A DNA stretch of 64,000 nucleotides from Candidatus Dormiibacterota bacterium (GTDB lineage Bacteria; Chloroflexota; Limnocylindria; Limnocylindrales; CSP1-4). Shown in pieces: positions 5,992-64,000 of this stretch. The stretch spans positions 63,446-127,445 of the forward strand of contig DASQIK010000027.1 in assembly GCA_035631615.1 (NCBI GenBank). The letters are read 5' to 3'. The position numbers and the translations under genes are program-made. The notes under the pieces were generated by a model, which was given only the letters and a program-made list of their open reading frames with translations, ran no database searches and had not been told where the DNA came from. Numbering within the stretch: position 1 is the first letter of the stretch; each line of letters starts with the position of its first letter.

Positions 5992-7419
5992 TCAGGGCAG
6001 CTCTCGCGCGCGGCGAACGTGCCGCCGTCCGACCTCCCAGTCGAACGACCGGAACACGTGCAGGTCGGCGACATGCTGGGCCGCCGAGTAGAACATCTCG
6101 TACTGGAGCTGGCGACCGGCGAACTCGGTGCCGACGAGGTCCCACAGCAGCTTGAGGAGCGCCACCCGCTCCCTCGAGGGGAGCTTCGCGGAGCGATAGT
6201 ACCGATTGACGTCGTCTGCCGTCTCCGGGGACGCGTAGCTCTCCGCCGACGGCATGGCGATCAACCCGCCGCCGCCGAGCTCTCGCAGCGCGCGCATCAG
6301 GTCGACGACCCAGCGACGCTGCAGGCTCACGCCAGCGTGGACGATGCCGGGATCCGGAAGCATCAGGCCACCGCGCCGCTCCGGGCTGTGCTGCGCGGCC
6401 ATCGTCAGTGCCTCGAGGGCCGCGCAGAAGGCAGCGACGTCGCCTCCGAGCTGGGCTTGCACCGGTGGGATCGCGGACAGCCCGTGCGCATCAGCCAGCT
6501 CGATCGCCAGGCCGGCGGCGAACTCCATCTTCACCAGGAAGCGAACCAGTGCCTGGTAGTTGGCGAGCACGTGGGCGCCAGTCTCGTAGAACTGAGCGCT
6601 GACCAGCCCGATGTCGCGGTGGACGAACACGTGCTCCCACGGAATGAACACGTCCCGGAGCACGACCAGGTTGTCCGATTCGTCGAATCGCGACGACAAC
6701 GGGTAGTCGAACGAGCTCGTTGCCATCGTCCCGTACGGCCGCCTCGGGTAGAGCCGCAGGCCCTCCGCGTTCAGCGGCATCACCACGGAGATCGCGTAGT
6801 CCTCGTCACCGGGCTGGAGCGGCGCGATGTAGCTGAGCAGGAGGTAGTCGGAGATCGCGGCCGAGGTGGCGATCATCTGCGCGCCGCGAATGACGATTCC
6901 GTCGTCACGCTCCGCGACGACGCCCGGGTACAGGAATGGCTCTGGCTGGAGGTGCGCAGGCTTGGACCGATCCACCTGCGGCGGCGTCACCGCATACGAC
7001 ACGAACCAGTCGTTGTCGCGCGCCTTCCGATAGAACGCCTCGACATTGTCGCCGTAGCGAGTCCCCGCGCGGTCGAACACGTCGCGGCGATGCGCGAAGG
7101 CCGTGATGATTGCGGCGACGTGGTCGGGCGTCCGGCCCATCAGCCCGAAGCTGCCCTCGGCCCAGTGGCGGTGGACGAGGCGCCGCGTGTCGAGGTCCTG
7201 GGGCGAACGCGGCGGCAACCACATTGCGCTGTGGGCGATGCGGTCCACCTCGTAGCCGATGTCGAGCTTGTCGAACGCCGAGTCGTACATCGAGGCAATG
7301 ACCCGGGTCGGACCGGCGAATCCGGGATGAGCAGTGACGTCCTCGACCCTCGCGCCGTCGAGGAGGATCGTCCGTCCATCGCGCCTGATCCCCGCGATAT
7401 AGTCCGCTCCGCGCCGCAT
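5992..7419 (-). CDS. hpaB: 4-hydroxyphenylacetate 3-monooxygenase oxygenase component family (HpaB-like two-component flavin monooxygenase)
   Basis: The N-terminus 'DYIAGIRRDGRTILLDGARVEDVTAHPGFAGPTRVIASMYD' aligns with the HpaB N-terminus ([28 protein letters not shown]). Length 475 aa. Confidence 0.85.
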   Translation of the reverse strand: MRRGADYIAGIRRDGRTILLDGARVEDVTAHPGFAGPTRVIASMYDSAFDKLDIGYEVDRIAHSAMWLPPRSPQDLDTRRLVHRHWAEGSFGLMGRTPDHVAAIITAFAHRRDVFDRAGTRYGDNVEAFYRKARDNDWFVSYAVTPPQVDRSKPAHLQPEPFLYPGVVAERDDGIVIRGAQMIATSAAISDYLLLSYIAPLQPGDEDYAISVVMPLNAEGLRLYPRRPYGTMATSSFDYPLSSRFDESDNLVVLRDVFIPWEHVFVHRDIGLVSAQFYETGAHVLANYQALVRFLVKMEFAAGLAIELADAHGLSAIPPVQAQLGGDVAAFCAALEALTMAAQHSPERRGGLMLPDPGIVHAGVSLQRRWVVDLMRALRELGGGGLIAMPSAESYASPETADDVNRYYRSAKLPSRERVALLKLLWDLVGTEFAGRQLQYEMFYSAAQHVADLHVFRSFDWEVGRRHVRRARELP

Positions 7420-52348: not shown

Positions 52349-54079
52349 GTGCCGACCATGCACCAGCCCGAGCCCGTGGGATCAAGCACGCAAGGCGACG
52401 AACCGATCCCAGTGGGCGAGCGCGGGCGCGCACTGATCGGCCAGCCCCTGCTGAACAAGGGCACCGCCTTCTCCGAGCGCGAGCGTGACGCGTTCGGCCT
52501 GCACGGCCTGCTGCCGCCGCGGGTGAGCACGATCGAGGAGCAGGTGTCGCTCGAGCTGGAGCACGTCCGGCGCAAGGCCGACGACCTCGAGCGGTACATC
52601 GGCCTGGCGGCGCTCCAGGACCGCAACGAGACCCTGTTCCACCGCGTGCTCGCGGAGAACCTCGAGGAGTTCCTGCCGATCGTGTACACGCCGACGGTCG
52701 GCCGCGCCTGCACGGACTACAGCCACATCTTCCGGCGGCCGCGCGGCGTCTGGATCACGCCCGACGACGTCGGCCGCATCGACGACATCCTGGGCGTCGC
52801 CAGCGACCGCCCGATCCGGCTCATCGTCGTCACCGACAACGAGCGGATCCTCGGGCTCGGCGACCAGGGCGCCGGTGGCATGGCGATCCCGGTCGGCAAG
52901 CTCGCCCTGTACAGCGCGGCGGCCGGAATCTACCCGGCATTGACGCTGCCGGTCTCGCTCGACGTCGGAACGGATCGCCGCGAGCTGCTCGACGACCCGC
53001 TCTACCTCGGATACCGCGCGCCGCGGTTGCGCGGCGAGGCCTACGACCACGTGGTCGAGGCATTCGTCGATGCGGTTCGCCGCGTGTTCCCGCGCGCAGT
53101 CGTGCAGTGGGAGGACTTCAAGCAGCACAACGCACTGCGCATCCTCGACCGCTATCGCCACCGCCTACCGAGCTTCAACGATGACATCCAGGGGACCGGC
53201 GCGGTTGTCCTCGCCGGACTGCTGGCGGCGCGGGGCGGCGTCGAGGGCCTTCGGCAGGACCGATTCTTGTTCCTCGGCGCCGGCGCAGCCGGGATCGGCA
53301 TCGCCCGGCTCCTCGCGCGCCAGCTCGACCTCGAGCCCGCCGCACCCGGGCAGCGGCCGGTCATCGCCATGCTCGACAGCCACGGCCTCGTGCATGCAGA
53401 TCGGCACGGTCTCGGCGCGGATCAGCGGCCATTCGCGGCGGATCCGGCCTGGTTCGCCCTTGCCGGCCTGGGCGGAGCAGACCTTGCCGACCCCGTGGCC
53501 GTCGCCCGCGTCTTCCGGCCAACCGTCATGTTCGGCACGACCGGCACACCGGGCGCGTTCTCGGAGGCGCTCATCCACCAGCTCGCGGACCAACCGGCGG
53601 TCCCGATCGTGCTCCCCCTGTCGAACCCGAGCGACCGGTCCGAGGCCAGCCCGGCGCAGCTGCTCGATTGGACGGGCGGCCGTGCGCTGGTCGCGACAGG
53701 GAGCCCGTTTGCCCCTGTCGGGTCCCGGGTGATCGGCCAGGCGAACAACGTGTTCATCTTTCCGGGCGTCGGGCTCGGGGCGCTCGTCGCGGAGGCGCGC
53801 GAGGTCACGGACGAAGCCTTCCTGACCGCAGCGCAGGAGCTCGCGGCTTCGGTGTCCCCCGAGCGACTGGCGACCGGCAGCATCTACCCGCCGATCAGCG
53901 AGCTCCGTTCGATCGCGCGCCGGATCGCGATCGCCGTCGTGCGGCGCCTCCGCGACACCGGCTACGGCCGCCAGTTCCGCGATGAGGAGATCGAGCCGGC
54001 GGTTGGTGCCGCCATGTGGATCCCCGCGTACCGGCCCTACGCGCCCGCGACCGCAGCCGGGCCGACGGAGTCGCGCTAG
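52349..54079 (+). CDS. maeA: NAD(P)-dependent malic enzyme
   Basis: 'LLNKGTAFSERER...LHGLLPP', 'IVYTPTVG', 'FNDDIQGTGAV', and 'FLGAGAAGIGIA' are malic-enzyme signatures and the NAD-binding fold. Confidence 0.85.
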   Translation: MPTMHQPEPVGSSTQGDEPIPVGERGRALIGQPLLNKGTAFSERERDAFGLHGLLPPRVSTIEEQVSLELEHVRRKADDLERYIGLAALQDRNETLFHRVLAENLEEFLPIVYTPTVGRACTDYSHIFRRPRGVWITPDDVGRIDDILGVASDRPIRLIVVTDNERILGLGDQGAGGMAIPVGKLALYSAAAGIYPALTLPVSLDVGTDRRELLDDPLYLGYRAPRLRGEAYDHVVEAFVDAVRRVFPRAVVQWEDFKQHNALRILDRYRHRLPSFNDDIQGTGAVVLAGLLAARGGVEGLRQDRFLFLGAGAAGIGIARLLARQLDLEPAAPGQRPVIAMLDSHGLVHADRHGLGADQRPFAADPAWFALAGLGGADLADPVAVARVFRPTVMFGTTGTPGAFSEALIHQLADQPAVPIVLPLSNPSDRSEASPAQLLDWTGGRALVATGSPFAPVGSRVIGQANNVFIFPGVGLGALVAEAREVTDEAFLTAAQELAASVSPERLATGSIYPPISELRSIARRIAIAVVRRLRDTGYGRQFRDEEIEPAVGAAMWIPAYRPYAPATAAGPTESR

Positions 54080-54624
54080 GCCTCGATCGGCGCCCCGCGC
54101 TCGAAGCCGAGTGCGAATGCCCGAAGGTTCATTGCCACAACCTCCTGGCCACCCTTGGCCGCCAGCTCCAGGAGTGCCGCTCGCATCGATTCCGGGCTGA
54201 CGATGCGACGGCGCGCGAGGGCGCCACCGAGGGCGATGACGCTGATCACCCGCTCGTCACCGACCTCGCGGGCGAGCGCGGAGCACGGCAGCCGGAGGAC
54301 CTCCATGACGGTCCGTCGAGGCTCCGCTTCGATCAGCGAGTCGTTCAGGACGAGCAGGCCGCCGGGCGCGAGCAGGCCTTCGAACCTGGCGAGCGACGGT
54401 GGATTGAGCGCGATCACGATGTCGGCACGGTCGACGACCGGCGACCCGATCGGGGCATCGCTGACGATCACCGTGCAGGAGGCGGTCCCGCCGCGCATCT
54501 CCGGCCCGTACGAGGGCAGCCACGAGACGTGCCGGTCCTCGGCCATCCCGGCATGGGCGAGCACCTGGCCGGCGAACAGGATGCCCTGGCCACCGAAGCC
54601 GCTCAGGATCGTTGCCTGCTCCAC
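54076..54624 (-). CDS. 2-oxoacid:ferredoxin oxidoreductase gamma subunit
   Basis: GTG start 'VEQATILSGFGGQGILFAGQVL' shows the gamma-subunit GFGGQG motif. It follows the beta subunit's stop. Confidence 0.7.
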   Translation of the reverse strand: MEQATILSGFGGQGILFAGQVLAHAGMAEDRHVSWLPSYGPEMRGGTASCTVIVSDAPIGSPVVDRADIVIALNPPSLARFEGLLAPGGLLVLNDSLIEAEPRRTVMEVLRLPCSALAREVGDERVISVIALGGALARRRIVSPESMRAALLELAAKGGQEVVAMNLRAFALGFERGAPIEA

Positions 54625-54626
54625 CT

Positions 54627-55412
54627 TCAGACCTCGCCCATCGCCATCCGCCGTCGATCGACGAGGACTCCAAGCGGGTAGACGCCGGTCACGTCGTTCG
54701 CGACGTGGGCCATCGATTCGGTCGGCGTCATCCCCCACCCGACTGGGCACGTCGACAGGACCTCGACGATCGAGAGGCCCGGCCCGGCGAGCTGGCTCTC
54801 GAATGCCCGCCGGATCATCGCCTTGGTCCTGCCGATCTGGCCGGGGTCCGTGATCGATCCTCGGGCGGCGTACACCACGCCGGGCAGGATGGCAAGCATC
54901 TCGGTGATCGGGATCGGGAAGCCCGTCACGGCCGATTCCCGTCCCCGCGGACTCGAGGTCGTGTGCTGGCCCAGCAGCGTCGTCGGCGCCATCTGGCCAC
55001 CGGTCATGCCGTAGATCCCGTTGTTCACGAATACGACGGTGATCCGCTCGCCGCGCGCGGCGGCATGCACGATCTCCGCGGTGCCGATGGCGGCGAGATC
55101 GCCGTCGCCCTGGTAGGTGAACACGAAGGCGTCGGGCCGGGCGCGCCGGACGCCGGTCGCGACGGCGGGCGCCCGCCCGTGGGGCGACTCGACGAAGTCG
55201 ATCCCGAGGTAGTCGTAAGCGAACACGCTGCACCCGACGGACGCGACCCCGATCGTCTTCGGACCGAGGTGCAGCTCGTCGAGGAGCTCCGCGATCAGGC
55301 GATGGATGATCCCGTGGCCGCAGCCGGGGCAGTAATGCGTCGACCGGTCCGTGAGCAGCGCGGGGCGCCCGTACACGACTCGGCGGTCATCGGTGCGCAG
55401 CCCGGCGGTCAT
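54627..55412 (-). CDS. 2-oxoacid:ferredoxin oxidoreductase beta subunit (TPP-binding)
   Basis: 'HYCPGCGHGII' and 'FTYQGDGDLAAIG...VVFVNNGIYGMTGGQ' form the TPP-binding GDG...NN motif. Its ATG overlaps the alpha stop (ATGA). Coordinates were derived from ORF-table arithmetic. Confidence 0.8.
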   Translation of the reverse strand: MTAGLRTDDRRVVYGRPALLTDRSTHYCPGCGHGIIHRLIAELLDELHLGPKTIGVASVGCSVFAYDYLGIDFVESPHGRAPAVATGVRRARPDAFVFTYQGDGDLAAIGTAEIVHAAARGERITVVFVNNGIYGMTGGQMAPTTLLGQHTTSSPRGRESAVTGFPIPITEMLAILPGVVYAARGSITDPGQIGRTKAMIRRAFESQLAGPGLSIVEVLSTCPVGWGMTPTESMAHVANDVTGVYPLGVLVDRRRMAMGEV

Positions 55413-56455
55413 GGCGTCGGTGCCGTCAGGGCCCACGCGATGCTCAGCCGATCGACGACCTCCCCCGGCGTGGGCACCATGCCGCCGGTGCGGCCGTGGA
55501 AGAACACCGGGGCCGTGTCCACGGCCAGGCGCACGTCCTCGACCATCTGCCCGGCGGACAGCTCGAGCGCGACGATTGCGCGGGCTCGCCGTGCGGCGAT
55601 TGCAAGGGCTGCCGTCGGGAACGGCCACAGGCTGATCGGCCGGAACAACCCGGCTCGGAGGCCGGCGGCGCGCGCTCGCTCGATCGCGGTCCGGGCGACC
55701 CGGGCCGCCGTGCCGTAGGCGACGACCACGATCTCTGCGTCGTCGAGCTGCTCGCCCGCCCACCGAGTCTCGCGCTCCGTGATCGCCGCGAACTTGGCCT
55801 GCAGGTGGCGGTTGTGGGCCTCGAGGTCCTCGGGCAGCAGGTGGAGCGAGCGCACCACCCTCGGGGAGCGGCCGTCCGCTCCCGTGAGCTCCCACGCCGA
55901 GGCATCCCAGGCGGGTGTTCGGAACGCCGGCACGACCGGCTCCATCGCCTGGCCCATGATCCCGTCCGCGAGGAGGATGACCGGGGTCCGGTAGCGTGCG
56001 GCGATCTCGAACCCGTCGGCAACGAGTGCGACCGCCTCGGCGATGGAAGCCGGCGCCAGCACCGGCACCCGGTAGTCCCCGTGGCCGTGGCCCTTGGTCG
56101 CCTGGAAGTAATCGGACTGCGATGGGCCGATGCTGCCGAGGCCGGGACCACCACGCATCACGTTGATGAGGAGCATCGGCAGCTCCGAGCCGGACATGTA
56201 GCTCATCGCCTCGGCCATGAGGCTCATGCCGGGACTCGAGGTGGACACGAGGACGCGCGCTCCGGTGGCCGCCGCGCCCAGGGCCATGTTGATCGCCCCG
56301 ATCTCGCTCTCGGCCTGGATGAAGACCCGGCCGAGCTCGGGCATCCGCCGGGCGAGGCGCTCGAGCAGCTCGGCCTGGGGGGTGATCGGATAGCCGAAGT
56401 AGGCGTCACAGCCGGCCTCGATGGCGGCGTCGGCCATCGCCTCGTTGCCCTTCAT
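55409..56455 (-). CDS. 2-oxoacid:ferredoxin oxidoreductase alpha subunit
   Basis: 'MKGNEAMADAAIEAGCDAYFGYPITPQAEL' is the canonical KorA/PorA N-terminus. The internal Met was chosen over the ORF-finder extension. Confidence 0.8.
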   Translation of the reverse strand: MKGNEAMADAAIEAGCDAYFGYPITPQAELLERLARRMPELGRVFIQAESEIGAINMALGAAATGARVLVSTSSPGMSLMAEAMSYMSGSELPMLLINVMRGGPGLGSIGPSQSDYFQATKGHGHGDYRVPVLAPASIAEAVALVADGFEIAARYRTPVILLADGIMGQAMEPVVPAFRTPAWDASAWELTGADGRSPRVVRSLHLLPEDLEAHNRHLQAKFAAITERETRWAGEQLDDAEIVVVAYGTAARVARTAIERARAAGLRAGLFRPISLWPFPTAALAIAARRARAIVALELSAGQMVEDVRLAVDTAPVFFHGRTGGMVPTPGEVVDRLSIAWALTAPTP

Positions 56456-56508
56456 CAGCTGCGGCCTGGGCGCGGCCGCGGGGCGCTCGACAGTCACCCT
56501 CGGGACGC

Positions 56509-56784
56509 TCATCCGACGATCCTCGCTCGCGCGTAGACCGTGAAGACGGCGTCGGGACAGACCCGCGCGCAGAGCGCGCAGCTCGTGCACGCCGCGGCGT
56601 CGGTGAGGCGGATCGGATGATGGCCAAGGGCGTTCACGGCACCGGTGGAGAGCTCGAGCACGTGCTTCGGGCAGGCGGCGACGCAGAGCTCGCAGCCCTT
56701 GCAACGGTCGCGCGCGATGTCGAGTGGTTGAAATGACGGTGCCGCTCTGGCGCCGGTGCGACTCGGCTGGACGCCGATGGTCAT
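56509..56784 (-). CDS. 4Fe-4S dicluster ferredoxin (oxidoreductase delta subunit)
   Basis: Two CxxCxxCxxxCP motifs: 'CKGCELCVAACP' and 'CTSCALCARVCP'. Confidence 0.7.
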   Translation of the reverse strand: MTIGVQPSRTGARAAPSFQPLDIARDRCKGCELCVAACPKHVLELSTGAVNALGHHPIRLTDAAACTSCALCARVCPDAVFTVYARARIVG

Positions 56785-57658: not shown

Positions 57659-58261
57659 TCAGGCAGGCGGGCCCCCTGGTCCTGCCGGGCGGTGCGCGGT
57701 GGGGCGCGGTGGAGCGAGGATCGCGCGCGCCATCACGAGCGCGCCGATGACGATCAGCACGGCAGGCCACCAGCTGCCGAGATCCGTGGGCCGTGGCTCG
57801 CCTGCAAACACGCCCTCGAAGAACCAGAGGCCGGCTGCGAACAGGCTGGCCGCGGCGGCGCCCAACCAGAGGCCGCTCCGGACGAGGCCCGCGGCGTGCG
57901 CAAGGCGGCCGTAGACCACCAGCGCAAGGCCGGCGGCCAGCGGAAGCAGCGCCCAGGCGTACGCCCAGCTCTCCCAGTGGGCCGTCTGCGACTGGTACAG
58001 CAGCAGGCCGCCGACGGTCGTGACAACCGCGCCGGCGATCGCGAAGCCGATCCCGCGCGGCGGCGCAGGCACGAGCGACGCGCCGAGCAGGACGACGCCG
58101 GGCACGATCACGAGGAACGGCCACCAGCCGGACCCCATGGCCTCGAACACGCTGGAGCCGGCGATCTCGCGCAGGACGAGCGCGATGGCGCCGACGGCGA
58201 TCAGGAGCACGCCGATCACGGCGCCCGCCGTCGACGGGCGCCCTCCGATGGATTGCTGCAT
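57659..58261 (-). CDS. hypothetical membrane protein
   Basis: 200 aa with six predicted TM helices; Trp-rich 'WWPFLVIVPGV' and 'WWPAVLIVIGALV'. Confidence 0.45.
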   Translation of the reverse strand: MQQSIGGRPSTAGAVIGVLLIAVGAIALVLREIAGSSVFEAMGSGWWPFLVIVPGVVLLGASLVPAPPRGIGFAIAGAVVTTVGGLLLYQSQTAHWESWAYAWALLPLAAGLALVVYGRLAHAAGLVRSGLWLGAAAASLFAAGLWFFEGVFAGEPRPTDLGSWWPAVLIVIGALVMARAILAPPRPTAHRPAGPGGPPA

Positions 58262-58374: not shown

Positions 58375-60081
58375 CTAGCGGATGCCGGCGAGCTCCTGGA
58401 GACCGCGCCAGTTCGCGAGCCGATCCTCGCGAGTCGCGAGGATCTCCGGTGACGGAGGCCCGTCGGCCGGGAAGTGGCCGCCGAAGCGACCTTCGGAGCG
58501 GGCGAAGTCGAGGAAGTCGATCGCCAGCCCGTCCGGTGTCGCCGCCCAGTCCTCCCGGAGCGCGGGATTGCCCTGGAGTGACAGCCGCTCGGCGTACGAC
58601 TCCCCACGGCGTGGGTCATAGGTGAACAACGGGTATGCCCTCGACTCGACCGCGAGCTTCGCCTGCCGGCTGGCGGCGTCATCGGCGATGCCGTGCTCAG
58701 GCATGCACGCGGCGTACACGATCACGACGGCCGGCCCGGGATAGCTGTTGGCCTCGAGGATCGCTCGGTAGAAGTGGTTCAGGTGGGCGGGTGTCGTCTG
58801 TGCCACGTAGACCTCGCCGTGGGCGAGCAGGATCCGGCCCAGCTCCTTGCGCCGCTCCGGGCGGCCGTGGACCACCTTGCCGAACGCCGACATCTTCGTG
58901 ACCTGGCCACCGAACGTTGCCGTCGACGCCTGCCCACCGGTGTTCGAGTAGACCTGTGTGTCCAGCACGAGCACCTTGACGTCGGCGCCCGAGGCGACCA
59001 TCCGGGACAGCGACTGGAAGCCGATGTCGTACATCGCGCCGTCACCGCCGACGACCCACAGCCGCCGGTCCTGGTGGCCGGCAGCGTCCCATCGCGCCCG
59101 GACGCCCAGCGCGACCGCCGGGGCGTTCTCGAACAGGGAGTTCGTCCACGGCACGCGGTATGGGTTGAACGGGTAGGTGCTGCCGAAGACGGTGTTGCAG
59201 CCGGTGGCGGCCACGATGCCCATCGATTCCGGGCCATGGACCTGGCGGGTCGCCGCGACGAGCATCCGGATCGCCGTCGCCTCGCCGCAGCCCGCGCAGG
59301 AGCCGGCACCGCCGACGTAGCCGATGGCGTCCTCGCCCAGCATCAGGTCCGCGAGCGCCTTCTCGTTGCGGTACTCGGGCGGGGTGACGGGCAGGGACCG
59401 GAAGAACGCGATGTCGCGCCGGAACCGCTCGAGCGTTGCCTCACCGGCGATCGGGGCGGCTCCCGCGGCCGTGGCGGGGACGGCCGGGTTGCCCTCCACG
59501 GCGACCTTCTCGCGCATGAACAGCGCGTCGTGCCCGAGCGCCGTGCAGACCTCGACGCACTCGCCGCAGCCCTTGCAGTGGGCAGGATCGACGAAGATGC
59601 CGAACATCCCGCGATCCAGGCCGCGCCGGGCGGGCACCTCGCCGTACTTCTGCGTGTCGACGAAGTGCGATCGCGCCGTCACCGCCGCGAGCGCCGGCTG
59701 GTCGGCGGCGGCCGCGAATGCCTCGATGCGCTCGTCGAGCTGCGGCGCCGGCACGACCGTACCGAGGATCGCCGTGTCGGGACAGGCGTTGACGCAGGCC
59801 ATGCACCCGACGCAGCGCTCCGCGAGCAGCTCGGGGATGCGCGGCGCGAGGTGGCTGAAGTCGCGCGCGGCCGCCGTCGCCGGCGGGATCACGCTCCGCG
59901 CCAGCCCGATGTCGGCGGGCAGCTCCCGGTCGGCGATTCCCCGCCGGTACGCCGGAACCACGGATCGCCCGAACTCCTCGACGTAGAGGTCCATGTCGAG
60001 CAGTGGCGGGGCGACGGTCATGAGGCCGACCTCGTGGCCCTCCTTGAGCTCACCCGGGACCTTGTTCAGCAGGTCGGTCAT
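58375..60081 (-). CDS. pyruvate/2-oxoacid:ferredoxin oxidoreductase, C-terminal half (ferredoxin domain plus TPP-binding domain VI)
   Basis: 2x[4Fe-4S] 'CVGCMACVNACP' and 'CKGCGECVEVC', then 'GCNTVFGSTYPFNPYRVPW' and 'WVVGGDGAMYDIGFQSLSRMVASGADVKVLVLDTQVYSNTGGQ' (PFOR domain VI TPP motif). Start at internal Met 'MTDLLNKV'. Confidence 0.8.
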   Translation of the reverse strand: MTDLLNKVPGELKEGHEVGLMTVAPPLLDMDLYVEEFGRSVVPAYRRGIADRELPADIGLARSVIPPATAAARDFSHLAPRIPELLAERCVGCMACVNACPDTAILGTVVPAPQLDERIEAFAAAADQPALAAVTARSHFVDTQKYGEVPARRGLDRGMFGIFVDPAHCKGCGECVEVCTALGHDALFMREKVAVEGNPAVPATAAGAAPIAGEATLERFRRDIAFFRSLPVTPPEYRNEKALADLMLGEDAIGYVGGAGSCAGCGEATAIRMLVAATRQVHGPESMGIVAATGCNTVFGSTYPFNPYRVPWTNSLFENAPAVALGVRARWDAAGHQDRRLWVVGGDGAMYDIGFQSLSRMVASGADVKVLVLDTQVYSNTGGQASTATFGGQVTKMSAFGKVVHGRPERRKELGRILLAHGEVYVAQTTPAHLNHFYRAILEANSYPGPAVVIVYAACMPEHGIADDAASRQAKLAVESRAYPLFTYDPRRGESYAERLSLQGNPALREDWAATPDGLAIDFLDFARSEGRFGGHFPADGPPSPEILATREDRLANWRGLQELAGIR

Positions 60082-60533
60082 GCGCGTGGCTCCCGGAGCC
60101 GCTCGGCGGTCTCCTCGGCGAGGGCGTGGACCAGGTCGGTCGTCGACAGGACGCCGATCGGGGTCGCCTCGTCGCCGTCCTCGACGACGATCAGGCGGTG
60201 GATCTGGAGGCGCGCCATCTTGCGTGCGGCGATGATCAGCGGCGTCGATCGGTGGACGGTCTGCGCCGGGCTCGTCATCAGGTGCCGAACGGCCAGGCCC
60301 GGCCAGTTCGACCACAGGTACTCGGTGCTCCGGGCCCGGTTGAGGTCGGTCTGGGACAGGACGCCGACGAGGGCGCCGCTCGCGTCGACGACCGGCAGTC
60401 CATGGACGCGGTGGCGGTCCATCAGCGCCGCCGCGTCGCTCAGCGAAGCATCCGCGCGGATGAGGACGGGGTCTCCGTGCATGCGGTCGGCGACGACCGC
60501 GCCGGTGATCGCATCGTGGTTGGCCAGGTTCAT
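60078..60533 (-). CDS. CBS domain pair protein
   Basis: Two CBS repeats: 'VLIRADASLSDAAALMDRHRVHGLPVVDASGALVGVLSQTDL' and 'HRSTPLIIAARKMARLQIHRLIVVEDGDEATPIGVLSTTDL'. Its stop overlaps the PFOR C-half ATG (ATGA), and the upstream PFOR N-half stop overlaps its own start region. Confidence 0.65.
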   Translation of the reverse strand: MNLANHDAITGAVVADRMHGDPVLIRADASLSDAAALMDRHRVHGLPVVDASGALVGVLSQTDLNRARSTEYLWSNWPGLAVRHLMTSPAQTVHRSTPLIIAARKMARLQIHRLIVVEDGDEATPIGVLSTTDLVHALAEETAERLREPRA

Positions 60534-62473
60534 GCGAGGACTCCCTCGGCCGCGGGCGCAGGAGCCGGAACGGGGCTCCCGATGGCGGCGGTGACGTCGA
60601 TCAGGCCGTCCCACGCCTCGGCGATGACGGCGAGGTTCGCGGCGATCACGCTCGAGCCACGCTTGCCGAAGAATCGGCCGAGGCGGTCACCGACGGCCTC
60701 GAGGACCTGGCCGCGGTCCATGCCTGCGCGCGCGGCGAATGGCGCGACCCGCAGGAACACGCCGACGAGCGCGACGCCCTGCATCCGCAGCTGGAGATCG
60801 GGCCTCGGCGCGTGACGGAGCGCGACCGCGGCCGTATCCAGCGCCGTGACGCGGATCCGTCGGGCGTCCACCTCGGCGCGCGCAGCGGCCGGCATCGATG
60901 CCCAGATCCCCTCGGCCGTCGGCAGCGGCGACTGGATGAACAGGTCGCCGCCGTCCACGAGGCCCGCGAGGGGGTCGCCAAGGTCGAACGCGGACACATC
61001 GTGCAGCGGCACGAAGTCGACCCGGTCGAGCTCGGCGTGGACGCGGATCGGGGCGTCGGCGATGGTCAGGTAGTAGGTCGTCGGCAGGCCCTTCTTCTCG
61101 GAGCCATAGCGCGGATACGCCTGCACCTGCTTGTGGAAGACCTCGCCGACGAGGGTCGCGACGAGCTTGTTCGTGGTGACGCTGCCGAAGCCGCCGATCG
61201 AATGGCCGCGCAGCGAGTAGGCGCCCGGCGGCCGCACGTCGAGCGGCGTCGCGGACAGCGCCAGCGGGTGGCGGATCCCGAGCACGCGCACCGGCCCGGT
61301 CGGCTCGGCACGATCGGCGAGCTCGTCGAACACCGCGACGAGGTCGCCCGCGCCGACGTCGCGCGAGCCCAGGCCCGCGACGAAGGATCTGACCCTGGGC
61401 ACCATCTCACCCTCGGCCGCGGCGTCGTACAGGGCCGCGCGGATCTCGCGGGTGAGCGGGTTGGCGCTCGCGAGCGGCTCGTCGGTCCGCTCGACGACGC
61501 CGACCGCCCGCGCATTTCGCAGTGCATCGAGCACAGCGCGGGAGGGGAACGGTCGGAAGGCCGTGAGACCCACGCAGCCCACCGGCCGACCCAGGGCTCG
61601 GAGATGATCGACGACCGCGATCGCCGTGTCGGCGATCGTGCCCATCGCGACGAGGATCTCGCGGGCGTCCTCGGTGCGATAGGTCGCGACCGGGGTGATC
61701 GGGCGGCCCGTCAGCGAGGTCCACTCCTCCATGGCCTCGCCGAGGGCGCCCGGGATCCGATCGCTGTAGGCCCGCTGGCCGATGCGACCCTTCATGTAGC
61801 TGTCCTGGTTCTGGACGACGCCGGTCATCAGCGCCTCGGCCGGGTCGAACAGGTCGCGGACATGCGCGCGGGGGTCGCCCACGAACTCGCGGAGCAGCTC
61901 GTCCTCCGGGAGGAGCACGTTCTCGAGCGTGTGCGTCGTGAGGAATCCGTCCTGGGCGACCATGAACGGCGTCTCCGTCGCCTCCGCAACCCGGCGGGCG
62001 ATGGCGGCGAGATCGGCGGCCTCCTGGGCGTTGCGTGCGAACAGGATTCCCCAGCCGCAGTCGGCGACGGCCATCACGTCGTCGTGGCCGGCGTGGATGT
62101 TGAGCGCCTGGCTGGTGAGCGCCCGGGCGCCGACGTGAAACACCGCCGGCAGGCGCTTGCCGCTGATGACGTACAGGACTTCCTTCATCAGTACGAGGCC
62201 CTGGCCCGCGGTGAAGTTCGTGACCCGCGCGCCCGCGAGTGCCGCGCCCTCGGCCGCCGAGGCGGACGAATGCTCGGACTCAGGCTCGATGAACCGGAGG
62301 GGCGTTCCCCACAGGTCCGTCCGGCCGTCGGCGACTGCCGCCTGGTAGATCGCGGCCATCGTCGTGGACGGCGTGATCGGGTAGACACAGGCGACCTCGG
62401 CGAGCCGCGATTCCACGTGGGCGACGGCCTCCGAGCCATCGACGATCGCGGGGATGCCGGGGAACCGGGTCAT
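60530..62473 (-). CDS. pyruvate/2-oxoacid:ferredoxin oxidoreductase, N-terminal half (domains I-III)
   Basis: 'IVDGSEAVAHVESRLAEVACVYPITPSTTMA' (domain I), through to 'RGHSIGGFGSVTTNKLVATLVGEVF...' (domain III gamma-like). Start at internal Met 'MTRFPGIP'. Confidence 0.8.
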   Translation of the reverse strand: MTRFPGIPAIVDGSEAVAHVESRLAEVACVYPITPSTTMAAIYQAAVADGRTDLWGTPLRFIEPESEHSSASAAEGAALAGARVTNFTAGQGLVLMKEVLYVISGKRLPAVFHVGARALTSQALNIHAGHDDVMAVADCGWGILFARNAQEAADLAAIARRVAEATETPFMVAQDGFLTTHTLENVLLPEDELLREFVGDPRAHVRDLFDPAEALMTGVVQNQDSYMKGRIGQRAYSDRIPGALGEAMEEWTSLTGRPITPVATYRTEDAREILVAMGTIADTAIAVVDHLRALGRPVGCVGLTAFRPFPSRAVLDALRNARAVGVVERTDEPLASANPLTREIRAALYDAAAEGEMVPRVRSFVAGLGSRDVGAGDLVAVFDELADRAEPTGPVRVLGIRHPLALSATPLDVRPPGAYSLRGHSIGGFGSVTTNKLVATLVGEVFHKQVQAYPRYGSEKKGLPTTYYLTIADAPIRVHAELDRVDFVPLHDVSAFDLGDPLAGLVDGGDLFIQSPLPTAEGIWASMPAAARAEVDARRIRVTALDTAAVALRHAPRPDLQLRMQGVALVGVFLRVAPFAARAGMDRGQVLEAVGDRLGRFFGKRGSSVIAANLAVIAEAWDGLIDVTAAIGSPVPAPAPAAEGVLA

Positions 62474-62976
62474 GATCGTGCTCCCATCGAGGCCGGCTGG
62501 GCGAGGTCGCGGATCGCGCCCTCGATCGTCTGCTCGAATGCAGCCATCCCGGCGCGCAGCGCCCGCGACCGCATCGAGCCATAGCCGAACCACTTGCCGC
62601 CGATCCCGACCAGGCGGCCCCGCGGCACCTGGCCGCGAATCGCCTCGGTGATCCCGAGGACCTGGGCGATCGGCAGCGCATGGGACGAGCGCGGAGCTGC
62701 CGCCTCCATGCGGGTCAGCTCGTCCAGCGAGATCTCGACGATCGAACCGGGCTCGACCCCGATGACCGTGTCGAGCACGAGGCACGCCTCGCCGTCGGCC
62801 ACGTCGATGAGGTCTGATGCATCGAGCTGGACGCAGCGTCGGACCTCGACGCGCTGGCGCAGGTCCGGCTCGAGGCGCGGCAGGACGTGGGCCACCGCAT
62901 TCAGCGCCGCACCATCGTCGCCGCGCTCGGCGCTGCCGCAGACGAGCACCCGAACCGTCGGCGCGGCGAGGGTCAT
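62470..62976 (-). CDS. hydrogenase maturation protease (HybD/HycI/HoxW-like) candidate
   Basis: 'VRVLVCGSAERGDDGAALNAVAHVL' resembles the endopeptidase N-terminus 'ILVLGxGNxLxxDDGxG'. It lies immediately after the large-subunit gene and overlaps the PFOR N-half start. Confidence 0.55.
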   Translation of the reverse strand: MTLAAPTVRVLVCGSAERGDDGAALNAVAHVLPRLEPDLRQRVEVRRCVQLDASDLIDVADGEACLVLDTVIGVEPGSIVEISLDELTRMEAAAPRSSHALPIAQVLGITEAIRGQVPRGRLVGIGGKWFGYGSMRSRALRAGMAAFEQTIEGAIRDLAQPASMGARS

Positions 62977-64000
62977 GACGGCGCCTGCTGGATGGACAGG
63001 TCGAGGAAGTGGGTCGCGCACGAGATGCACGGGTCGTAGGCGCGGATCAATTGCTCGAGCTGGTGCGTGGCCGCGTCCATCGGGAGGTCGAGGACGCGCG
63101 GCGCGAACGCTGCGACGTCGGCCTCGATCGCCGCCTGGTTCTGGGAGGTCGGCGGCACGATCACCGCGGCCGCCACCTTGCCGTCGTCGCCGAGCTGGTA
63201 GCGGTGGAACAGCAGCCCTCGCGGCGCCTCGGTGGCCCACGCGGCGGTGCCGGGCCGCGCCTCCCACTCGACGGCCGGCCGATCCGGCGGCTCGTACGCG
63301 TCCACGATGTCGATCGCGTCGGCCGTCGCGTGCACGAGCTCGATGGCCCGCGCGACGATGCTCCGGTACGGATTGCGCCGGATCGATTCGAGTGCCCCGC
63401 TCGCCTGCAGCGCCTCCCGCGCCAGCGGGTGCAGCTGCTCCGCGTCAAGCACGATCCGCGCCGCCGGGCCGAGGAGATAGGGCAGGTCGTCGGCGCCGCG
63501 CGCCTGGAGGGCGTTGGACCACGGCACCTGGACCTCGTGGAACGCCTCGCCCCACGCCTGGGGCGCAAGATTGAGGCCGTCGTTCGAGACGATCCGGCCG
63601 TCGTTCATCGGGTACTCGCGAGGGTTGTGGAGCGCGACGAGCCGCGGCTCGCGCTCGAACGCAGGTGGGGTCAGCCCGAGGGCAATGTCGACGGTCGCCC
63701 GAGCGAGCCGGAGCGCCTCGTGGAGTGCCGGCTGGAGGGCGCTCAGCTGCGCCTTTCGAGGCGCCCGCGACCAGCCGCCGACCCGCACGCTCACGGGGTG
63801 GATCGCGCGGCCGCCGAGGGTCGCGAGCAGGTGGTTGCCGATCTGCTTGAGCCGCAGTCCGTCGGCCACGAGCTGGCGATGGTCCTTCGCCATCTCGACC
63901 GCGCTCGGGTAGCCGAGGAAGTCCGGCGCGTGCAGCAGGTAGATGTGCAAAGCGTGGCTCTCGATCCACTCGGCGCAGTACATGAGTCGTCGCAGCGCGC
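62973..64000 (-). CDS. [NiFe]-hydrogenase large subunit, C-terminal portion (5' end beyond window)
   Basis: The C-terminal 'DPCISCATHFLDL' (DPCxxCxxH Ni-Fe ligand motif) and 'HALHIYLLHAPDFLGY' are present. The frame is open to the window edge. Confidence 0.8.
   Translation of the reverse strand, partial: ALRRLMYCAEWIESHALHIYLLHAPDFLGYPSAVEMAKDHRQLVADGLRLKQIGNHLLATLGGRAIHPVSVRVGGWSRAPRKAQLSALQPALHEALRLARATVDIALGLTPPAFEREPRLVALHNPREYPMNDGRIVSNDGLNLAPQAWGEAFHEVQVPWSNALQARGADDLPYLLGPAARIVLDAEQLHPLAREALQASGALESIRRNPYRSIVARAIELVHATADAIDIVDAYEPPDRPAVEWEARPGTAAWATEAPRGLLFHRYQLGDDGKVAAAVIVPPTSQNQAAIEADVAAFAPRVLDLPMDAATHQLEQLIRAYDPCISCATHFLDLSIQQAPS

Follow-up and report, generated by a model that had tools for sequence, protein, structure and literature searches.

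The window analysed here is a 64,000-nucleotide (nt) stretch of contig DASQIK010000027.1 (assembly GCA_035631615.1) from Candidatus Dormiibacterota bacterium. Towards its right-hand end lie two genes for the halves of a pyruvate:ferredoxin oxidoreductase (PFOR), with a gene for a CBS-domain protein between them that probably encodes a further component of the same enzyme (Table 1). These three open reading frames (ORFs) had been singled out in an original prediction made from the sequence alone, and all three were found in the same places on the minus strand. The first gene (N-half) matches the Pfam families POR_N (6.9e-60), PFOR_II (3.4e-17) and POR (1.2e-21), the last gene (C-half) matches Fer4 families twice and TPP_enzyme_C (2.3e-14), and the matches for PFOR domains I, II, III and VI are all far above the gathering scores. 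The middle ORF scores 93 bits against a cut-off of 24 for PF00571 (CBS), in two stretches. Each stop codon within the trio overlaps the next start codon in an ATGA, and a GGGAG-like Shine–Dalgarno sequence stands 7–8 nt upstream of both the CBS start and the C-half start. The G+C content around the three genes is 70–73%, and a promoter and terminator scan of this 72% G+C region detected nothing.

Table 1 Positions in the window of the PFOR genes, their junctions and the neighbouring genes
Feature	Coordinates	Strand	Details
PFOR N-half (alpha-gamma type subunit)	60530..62473	-	647 amino acids (aa); domains I, II, III
Stand-alone CBS pair (Bateman module), proposed PFOR regulatory subunit	60078..60533	-	151 aa; Pfam CBS x2
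PFOR C-half (delta-beta type subunit)	58375..60081	-	568 aa; domain IV-like N-terminal segment, V, VI
ATGA overlap, N-half stop/CBS start	60530..60533	-	raw sequence GCATGAAC
ATGA overlap, CBS stop/C-half start	60078..60081	-	raw sequence GCATGACC
Hydrogenase maturation protease	62470..62976	-	NCBIfam TIGR00072, 50.7 bits (cut-off 47.45)
Group 3b-type (sulfhydrogenase-like) [NiFe]-hydrogenase large subunit, C-terminal two thirds	62973..64000	-	best NCBIfam ShyA/HydA
LiaF-TM-like membrane protein	57659..58261	-	113 nt downstream of C-half
Second, four-subunit 2-oxoacid:ferredoxin oxidoreductase (OFOR)	54076..56784	-	delta ferredoxin, alpha (above VorB-subfamily cut-off), beta, gamma; without CBS gene
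NAD(P)-malic enzyme	52349..54079	+	NF010052, 662 bits; 3′ end overlaps the convergent OFOR gamma gene by 4 nt

Alignment to the PFOR structures 7PLM, 1B0P and 6CIN places the N-half on residues 7–607 of the Desulfovibrio africanus enzyme and the C-half on residues of about 648–1109 of the Moorella thermoacetica enzyme, with the leading stretch of the C-half corresponding to the end of domain IV. The N-half keeps the motifs YPITPS (Thr31), HVxARA (Arg114; HVGARA here) and LNIHAGH (Ile123), as well as the domain III loop G-x-G-x-V-x-x-N-K (GGFGSVTTNK), and the C-half keeps the thiamine pyrophosphate (TPP) motif GGDGAMYDIG...YSNTGGQ (Asn996). We take these four numbered residues and the domain III loop to be those that handle pyruvate and coenzyme A (CoA) in D. 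africanus; domain I of the N-half is the part that binds the TPP pyrimidine, domain III the part that binds CoA, and domain VI of the C-half the part that binds the TPP diphosphate. Two [4Fe-4S] motifs are present in domain V of the C-half (C90/93/96/100 and C169/172/175/179) and the proximal-cluster cysteines in domain VI (262/265/295/459), and all twelve cluster cysteines are invariant, together with GDG...YSNTGGQ, in an alignment of 14 diverse homologues (A1). Judged by these motifs, the two halves carry every cofactor and substrate feature of a working PFOR, and pyruvate would be the substrate, an assignment read from conserved residues only.

The CBS protein is encoded, with unchanged flanks, in contigs assembled separately from the sequencing runs SRR6788486 and SRR6788489, which do not differ from the window over 2633 and 1228 nt (100% identity), both junctions included. 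At E ≤ 1e-10, the C-half has over 6000 homologues, of which the 120 best are 549–596 aa long, the size of the split form. Median ratios of non-synonymous to synonymous substitution (dN/dS) of 0.23 for the N-half, 0.39 for the CBS gene and 0.23 for the C-half indicate that all three genes are under purifying selection.

A scan with one genome per species gave 80 loci at 71–87% identity, mostly labelled Chloroflexota or Limnocylindria with a few others, of which 76 have enough upstream sequence to be informative. The order N-half, CBS, C-half (hereafter N-CBS-C) is found in 72 of the 76, far beyond chance. The N-half stop and the CBS start overlap by exactly 4 nt in 66 of 71 loci, and the CBS stop and the C-half start overlap by 4, 8 or 11 nt in 51 of 72. 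The start codons assigned to the three ORFs fit these homologues, given the narrow length range of the C-half relatives (549–596 aa) and the recurring 4-nt overlap. With identical independent assemblies and a conserved arrangement, the division of the enzyme into two genes, and not a frameshift in one, is borne out; so are the retention of the CBS gene between the halves in orthologous loci and the translational coupling proposed from the ATGA junctions, whose overlaps recur in relatives. Public records give these proteins generic names (‘CBS domain-containing protein’, ‘thiamine pyrophosphate-dependent enzyme’, ‘4Fe-4S binding protein’), and an exact-sequence look-up of the window’s C-half matched no record.

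Some loci in the scan depart from the common pattern. One metagenome-assembled genome (MAG), MFD09964.bin.2.86, holds two paralogous N-CBS-C loci (L027 and L036), with C-halves 77% and 75% identical to that of the window, which points to a duplication or a second acquisition of all three genes together. A second CBS-pair paralogue, 40–50% identical to the window’s CBS protein, lies 2–8 kb downstream of the C-half in L030, L035, L047, L048, L050, L061 and L064; in L047 it stands among genes for an EamA transporter, a DUF6390 protein and a multicopper oxidase, an uninformative context. In L009, from a MAG that is labelled Patescibacteria and is probably mis-binned, an in-frame stop interrupts the N-half at about 6990..7000, within the conserved GSEKKGLPTTYY motif, and reflects a sequencing error or a pseudogene.

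More distant relatives link the CBS module to the enzyme most directly. A 50%-identity library yielded distant split forms together with single-chain forms, and the split form P0242 was traced further. In relatives from Caldilineales and Anaerolineales, whose C-half is 53–58% identical to that of the window, the N-half is 789–796 aa long and has the domain order POR_N-PFOR_II-POR-CBS-CBS. These CBS-fused N-halves (L083, L084, L085 and L088) come from a Caldilineaceae genome (GCA_041391085.1), an Anaerolineales genome (GCA_016713335.1) and two single-run assemblies. The fused module starts about 15 residues past the end of domain III, which binds CoA (PMC8091585), and aligns with residues 10–134 of the window’s CBS protein, including the W-x-x-x-P between the two motifs. 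A third clade, represented by a Binatia-labelled MAG and a JGI contig, has a separate N-half (646–654 aa), CBS protein (135 aa) and C-half (563 aa). Single-chain relatives without CBS are 1167–1184 aa long and 44–46% identical, P0251 and P0254 being the closest; in a neighbour-joining (NJ) tree they form the outgroup, and the three split clades all carry CBS. Pairwise distances of the CBS module correlate with those of the N-half (r = 0.88) at least as closely as those of the N-half do with those of the C-half (r = 0.82). When a module has its own gene in one lineage and is covalently part of the neighbouring gene product in another, the pattern classically signals a physical and functional partnership. 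The gene fusion thus speaks strongly, at the genomic level, for the CBS module as a part of the enzyme, and the proposal that the CBS protein is a PFOR subunit gains strong support from its attachment to the C terminus of the N-half in the sister clade.

Several other candidates for unusual architectures were set aside. P0381 and P0343, which appeared as fusions of CBS with the C-half (‘CBS+Fer4’), contain many out-of-frame stretches and were rejected. A 705-aa read-through of CBS into the C-half in a long-read MAG (L081, 7533..9650) was not counted as a fusion, and, because the GTGgCTAG of the usual 8-nt overlap is still present there, a 1-nt indel is likely. The extra N-terminal segment of P0250 proved to be the end of domain III in a shortened single-chain form and not a CBS module, and the 127-aa C-terminal extension of P0439 bears no relation to the junction. 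No single-chain PFOR with an internal CBS module, a possible intermediate, was present among 16 representative proteins scanned. In P0241 (962 aa), a C-half with Fer4 and TPP_enzyme_C domains, 64% identical to that of the window, is fused at its C terminus to a GltD/NfnB-like reductase module (Fer4_20 and Pyr_redox_2); it may be a pyruvate:NAD(P)+ oxidoreductase built unlike the Euglena type. In the Binatia-like clade, a universal stress protein (Usp) gene directly follows the C-half (L087, 5258..5686, and the JGI contig of P0480), and in L087 it is followed on the opposite strand by a fusion of a Pat-like acetyltransferase and an ADP-forming acyl-CoA synthetase.

An AlphaFold2 model of the CBS protein (pLDDT 81.9, pTM 0.74) is a standard Bateman module with two beta-alpha-beta-beta-alpha units, and Foldseek matches it to many CBS-pair structures with a probability of 1.0 and template modelling (TM) scores of 0.6–0.8. 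The closest solved structures are TTHA0829, MJ0100 (bound to S-adenosylmethionine (SAM) or methylthioadenosine (MTA)), AcuB (AMP, ADP, ATP or diadenosine tetraphosphate (Ap4A)), CBSX2 (AMP), CcpN and AMPK-gamma; matches at the sequence level are similar, with AMPK-gamma at E of about 1e-9. With 151 aa and two CBS domains only, the protein does not have the AcuB-family architecture of a CBS pair followed by a C-terminal ACT domain. The CBS ribose-binding motif, G-h-h-S/T-x-x-D/N, lines the ligand cleft, and two copies occur here, G57-V-L-S60-x-T62-D63 (GVLSQTD, 57–63) and G127-x-x-S130-x-x-D133 (GVLSTTD, 127–133). Across 72 sequences, the G, S and D of both motifs are at least 95% conserved, as is the H112-R113 pair in ‘IHRLVVV’; R66, W77 and R83-H84 are also conserved. 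We take the H112-R113 pair, within the ‘HRLVVV...G-h-h-S-x-x-D’ of the second CBS domain, to resemble the phosphate-binding His-Arg sites of AMPK-gamma. The motifs would fit a phosphorylated adenosyl ligand, and the lack of any cysteine in the protein argues against a thiol switch.

Upstream of the PFOR genes lies a hydrogenase. The large-subunit gene is cut at its 5′ end by the end of the window, its frame running beyond base 64000, and its product carries the C-terminal motif DPCISCATH; scores to ShyA/HydA are below the cut-off for this partial sequence. The start of the protease gene overlaps the large-subunit stop, and the N-half ATG at 62473 overlaps the protease stop, in both cases as ATGA, such that hydrogenase large subunit, protease, N-half, CBS and C-half form five consecutive genes joined by 4-nt overlaps. 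A full operon is seen in L003, where genes for a cyclic-nucleotide-monophosphate (cNMP)-binding protein, Fer4_22, NAD_binding_1+DHODB_Fe-S_bind, Oxidored_q6 (small subunit), NiFeSe_Hases (large subunit) and the protease precede N-CBS-C. Among the 52 loci with enough flanking sequence, 32 have hydrogenase or protease genes upstream on the same strand and 20 do not. The setting is probably one of oxygen-limited pyruvate oxidation tied to a co-transcribed group 3b [NiFe]-hydrogenase; the hypoxic H2 production of mycobacteria by a group 3b hydrogenase offers an analogy only. In this arrangement, an NAD(P)-linked hydrogenase shares an operon with a ferredoxin-reducing enzyme. In 12 loci, an insert of about 2 kb between the hydrogenase and PFOR genes is an opposite-strand gene of the alpha-amylase family.

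On the other side of the trio, the LiaF-like gene is probably not part of the unit, as it occupies that position only in L009 and is found elsewhere in L051. Further downstream, the malic enzyme gene and the second OFOR make, together with the PFOR, a cluster of pyruvate-node enzymes.

The observations are best explained, in our view, if the three genes encode one heteromeric enzyme with a ligand-sensing CBS regulatory subunit, a reading that we favour without regarding it as settled. Its parts carry different weight. On the evidence of gene order and fusion, the CBS module is very probably a genuine component of the PFOR enzyme. From its conserved motifs, we lean towards its being a ligand-responsive regulator. 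More tentative is the suggestion, in line with the energy-charge regulation raised in the original prediction, that the module reads energy charge by binding an adenine nucleotide; it rests on the motifs and the nearest structural relatives. The module would be accessory and not catalytic, as indicated by four loci that have no CBS gene and by the active, CBS-less PFOR of Magnetococcus marinus (discussed below).

As a mechanism, we propose that the catalytic protomer is split at the boundary of domains III and IV into an alpha-gamma chain (domains I-II-III) and a delta-beta chain (domains IV-V-VI), with the Bateman module associated with the C-terminal end of the CoA-binding domain III. In the window, the module would be a separate subunit that is co-translated stoichiometrically, and in the sister clade it is joined covalently to the C terminus of the N-half. 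The CBS pair would bind at or near domain III, would probably dimerize, and would most likely act as an allosteric sensor of a phosphorylated adenosyl ligand (AMP, ADP, ATP or a relative). Occupancy by the ligand would shift the conformation of the CBS module and so tune PFOR activity to the energy or redox state of the cell, possibly by restraining or releasing domain III and with it the access of CoA. The anatomy of the genes, their conservation and coupling, the fusion, and the CBS fold and motifs are direct observations; the physical complex in this organism, the identity of the ligand, the direction of regulation and the mechanism we infer.

Several observations weigh against this reading. 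The CBS gene is missing from four loci (L016, L026, L044 and L045), in three of which the two halves overlap directly by 4 nt. In an NJ tree of the C-half that includes three of the four, L016 and the pair L044 and L045 are nested among CBS-bearing loci; this position indicates secondary losses of CBS. The fused and stand-alone CBS modules are only 36% identical, and R83-H84 is not kept in the fused form. The motifs would leave room for SAM, NAD(H), Ap4A, cyclic di-AMP (c-di-AMP) or CoA derivatives as ligands, or for none. The enzyme itself is divergent: scores against the NCBIfam PFOR equivalog TIGR02176 are 353.8 bits for the N-half and 194 bits for the C-half, each of which covers half of the model, and neither reaches the cut-off of 911. 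The halves should thus be regarded as a divergent PFOR-like subfamily and not as a NifJ equivalog, with pyruvate as its presumed substrate. Since the M. marinus PFOR works without CBS, catalysis does not require the module, and its association with the enzyme could be no more than loose.

The strongest alternative keeps the sensor and changes its ligand to something other than AMP, ADP or ATP, such as CoA or acetyl-CoA, NAD(P)H, SAM, Ap4A or c-di-AMP. The structural neighbours include CBS proteins bound to SAM or MTA and to Ap4A; the fused module sits on the CoA-binding domain, where CoA or acetyl-CoA could exert substrate or product feedback; and the NAD(P)-type group 3b hydrogenase in the operon could point to redox state read through NAD(P)H. 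We nevertheless consider such a ligand unlikely, since R66, R83, H84, H112 and R113 and the AMPK-gamma-like ‘HRLVVV’ fit a phosphate-bearing adenine nucleotide, although this is a distinction that sequence alone cannot make.

Somewhat less likely again is a purely structural or assembly role, in which the CBS module, given that CBS pairs dimerize, clamps the two protomers or compensates for the broken linkage between domains III and IV and senses no metabolite. The distribution of the module has something to offer here: CBS is confined to the split clades and is absent from the single-chain outgroup and from the other scanned relatives of single-chain length, it lies exactly at the split point, its fused form is attached to the end of domain III, and the tight 4-nt coupling suggests stoichiometric production. 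However, at least two losses of CBS occurred within the split clade without any rejoining of the halves, which are directly coupled in those loci, and the two-chain M. marinus PFOR does not need CBS for activity. Conservation of at least 95% in the ribose-binding motifs and the His-Arg pair would also be unexpected in a pure scaffold.

It is very improbable that the CBS protein is an independent regulator of stress or hypoxia that is merely co-transcribed and acts on another target, such as the hydrogenase or a thioredoxin. Stand-alone CBS proteins of this type are exemplified by Hrp1 of Mycobacterium tuberculosis and by plant CBSX; stand-alone CBS pairs with other targets exist, and CBSX2 and AcuB are among the best matches here. 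The extra CBS paralogues near several loci and the Usp gene that follows the operon in one clade would also suit such a role. Opposed to it are the covalent fusion to the PFOR N-half throughout a sister clade, the placement of CBS strictly between the halves in three clades, including the 20 of 52 loci without hydrogenase genes, and the co-divergence of the module with the N-half. Finally, the idea that the split arose through assembly or sequencing error or through decay of nifJ into a pseudogene, and that the CBS ORF is spurious, is refuted by the identity of independent assemblies across both junctions, the many C-half homologues of split-form length with conserved overlaps, purifying selection on all three genes and the genuine CBS fold and Pfam score; nothing was found in its support, although isolated copies with frameshifts or indels do exist elsewhere (P0381, P0343, L009 and L081).

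PFOR stands at the pyruvate/acetyl-CoA node and supplies low-potential electrons to hydrogenases, nitrogenase and CO2 fixation. If our favoured reading of one enzyme with a sensor subunit is true, that subunit adds direct metabolite control to PFOR and can serve as a lever when PFOR-driven pathways to H2 or for CO2 fixation are engineered. Uncultured Chloroflexota of soil and groundwater widely carry the N-CBS-C system, often in one operon with a group 3b hydrogenase, and it may help to explain how these dominant aerobes survive hypoxia. Taken to its furthest, and as conjecture more than expectation, the system could be the first OFOR with a dedicated allosteric sensor: a Bateman module docked on domain III or fused to it would gate pyruvate oxidation by adenine-nucleotide status and would switch on a fermentative module of PFOR and group 3b hydrogenase only at low energy charge under oxygen limitation, in soil bacteria that are abundant and nominally aerobic (Limnocylindria, other Chloroflexota, and MAGs labelled Dormibacterota or Binatia).

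Known PFORs share the catalytic core. The single-chain homodimeric enzymes of the NifJ type (D. africanus, 1B0P; M. thermoacetica, 6CIN) have the same domain order I–VI and the same motifs, but, unlike the window genes, they consist of one polypeptide and are without CBS. The disulfide switch in domain VII of the D. africanus enzyme is a different kind of regulation; as far as we are aware, OFOR control has been described at the level of transcription, through oxygen damage or through this switch. The closest counterpart of the split is the M. marinus PFOR, a two-polypeptide (alpha-beta)2 enzyme with three clusters that has been purified and electrochemically characterized (PMC12337175). It is made from the adjacent genes Mmc1_1741 and Mmc1_1742 and is active in both pyruvate oxidation and synthesis (PMC12337175). 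Both this enzyme and that of the window are split, but a CBS gene cannot fit between the consecutive M. marinus locus tags, and no sensor domain is reported for it (PMC12337175).

The regulatory side also has precedents, with other targets. AMPK-gamma and CBSX1/2 are CBS proteins that serve as nucleotide-sensing regulatory subunits or enzyme partners; AMPK-gamma has four CBS repeats per chain and regulates a kinase, the CBSX proteins regulate thioredoxins, and none of them is known to be tied to a 2-oxoacid oxidoreductase. Closer in function is AcuB of Bacillus and Geobacillus, a Bateman protein that responds to energy charge and, by protein-protein contact with a partner enzyme, governs acetyl-CoA synthesis (PMC13121692; PDB 9S4V-9S52). 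Like the window’s CBS protein, it is a small Bateman protein in a metabolic operon, and it binds AMP, ADP, ATP and Ap4A (PMC13121692). AcuB ranks with the best matches to the window’s CBS protein in both sequence and fold, at an identity of only about 25%, and differs in its extra ACT domain and in its target, the deacetylase AcuC and not an oxidoreductase. The two belong to different families, and what they would have in common is a working principle.

In the literature searched on CBS or Bateman proteins with PFOR or any OFOR, no description linking them was found, and the co-mentions examined were incidental; the literature on OFOR architecture and on group 3b hydrogenases likewise gave no such description. 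An overview of PFOR/OFOR architecture covers catalytic domains only, and the word ‘allosteric’ is absent from it. The original impression of an unfamiliar arrangement therefore holds for the CBS component and not for the split, which M. marinus already provides. As far as we can tell, the novelty lies in the integral CBS module, joined to a catalytic core and a split that were both known before.

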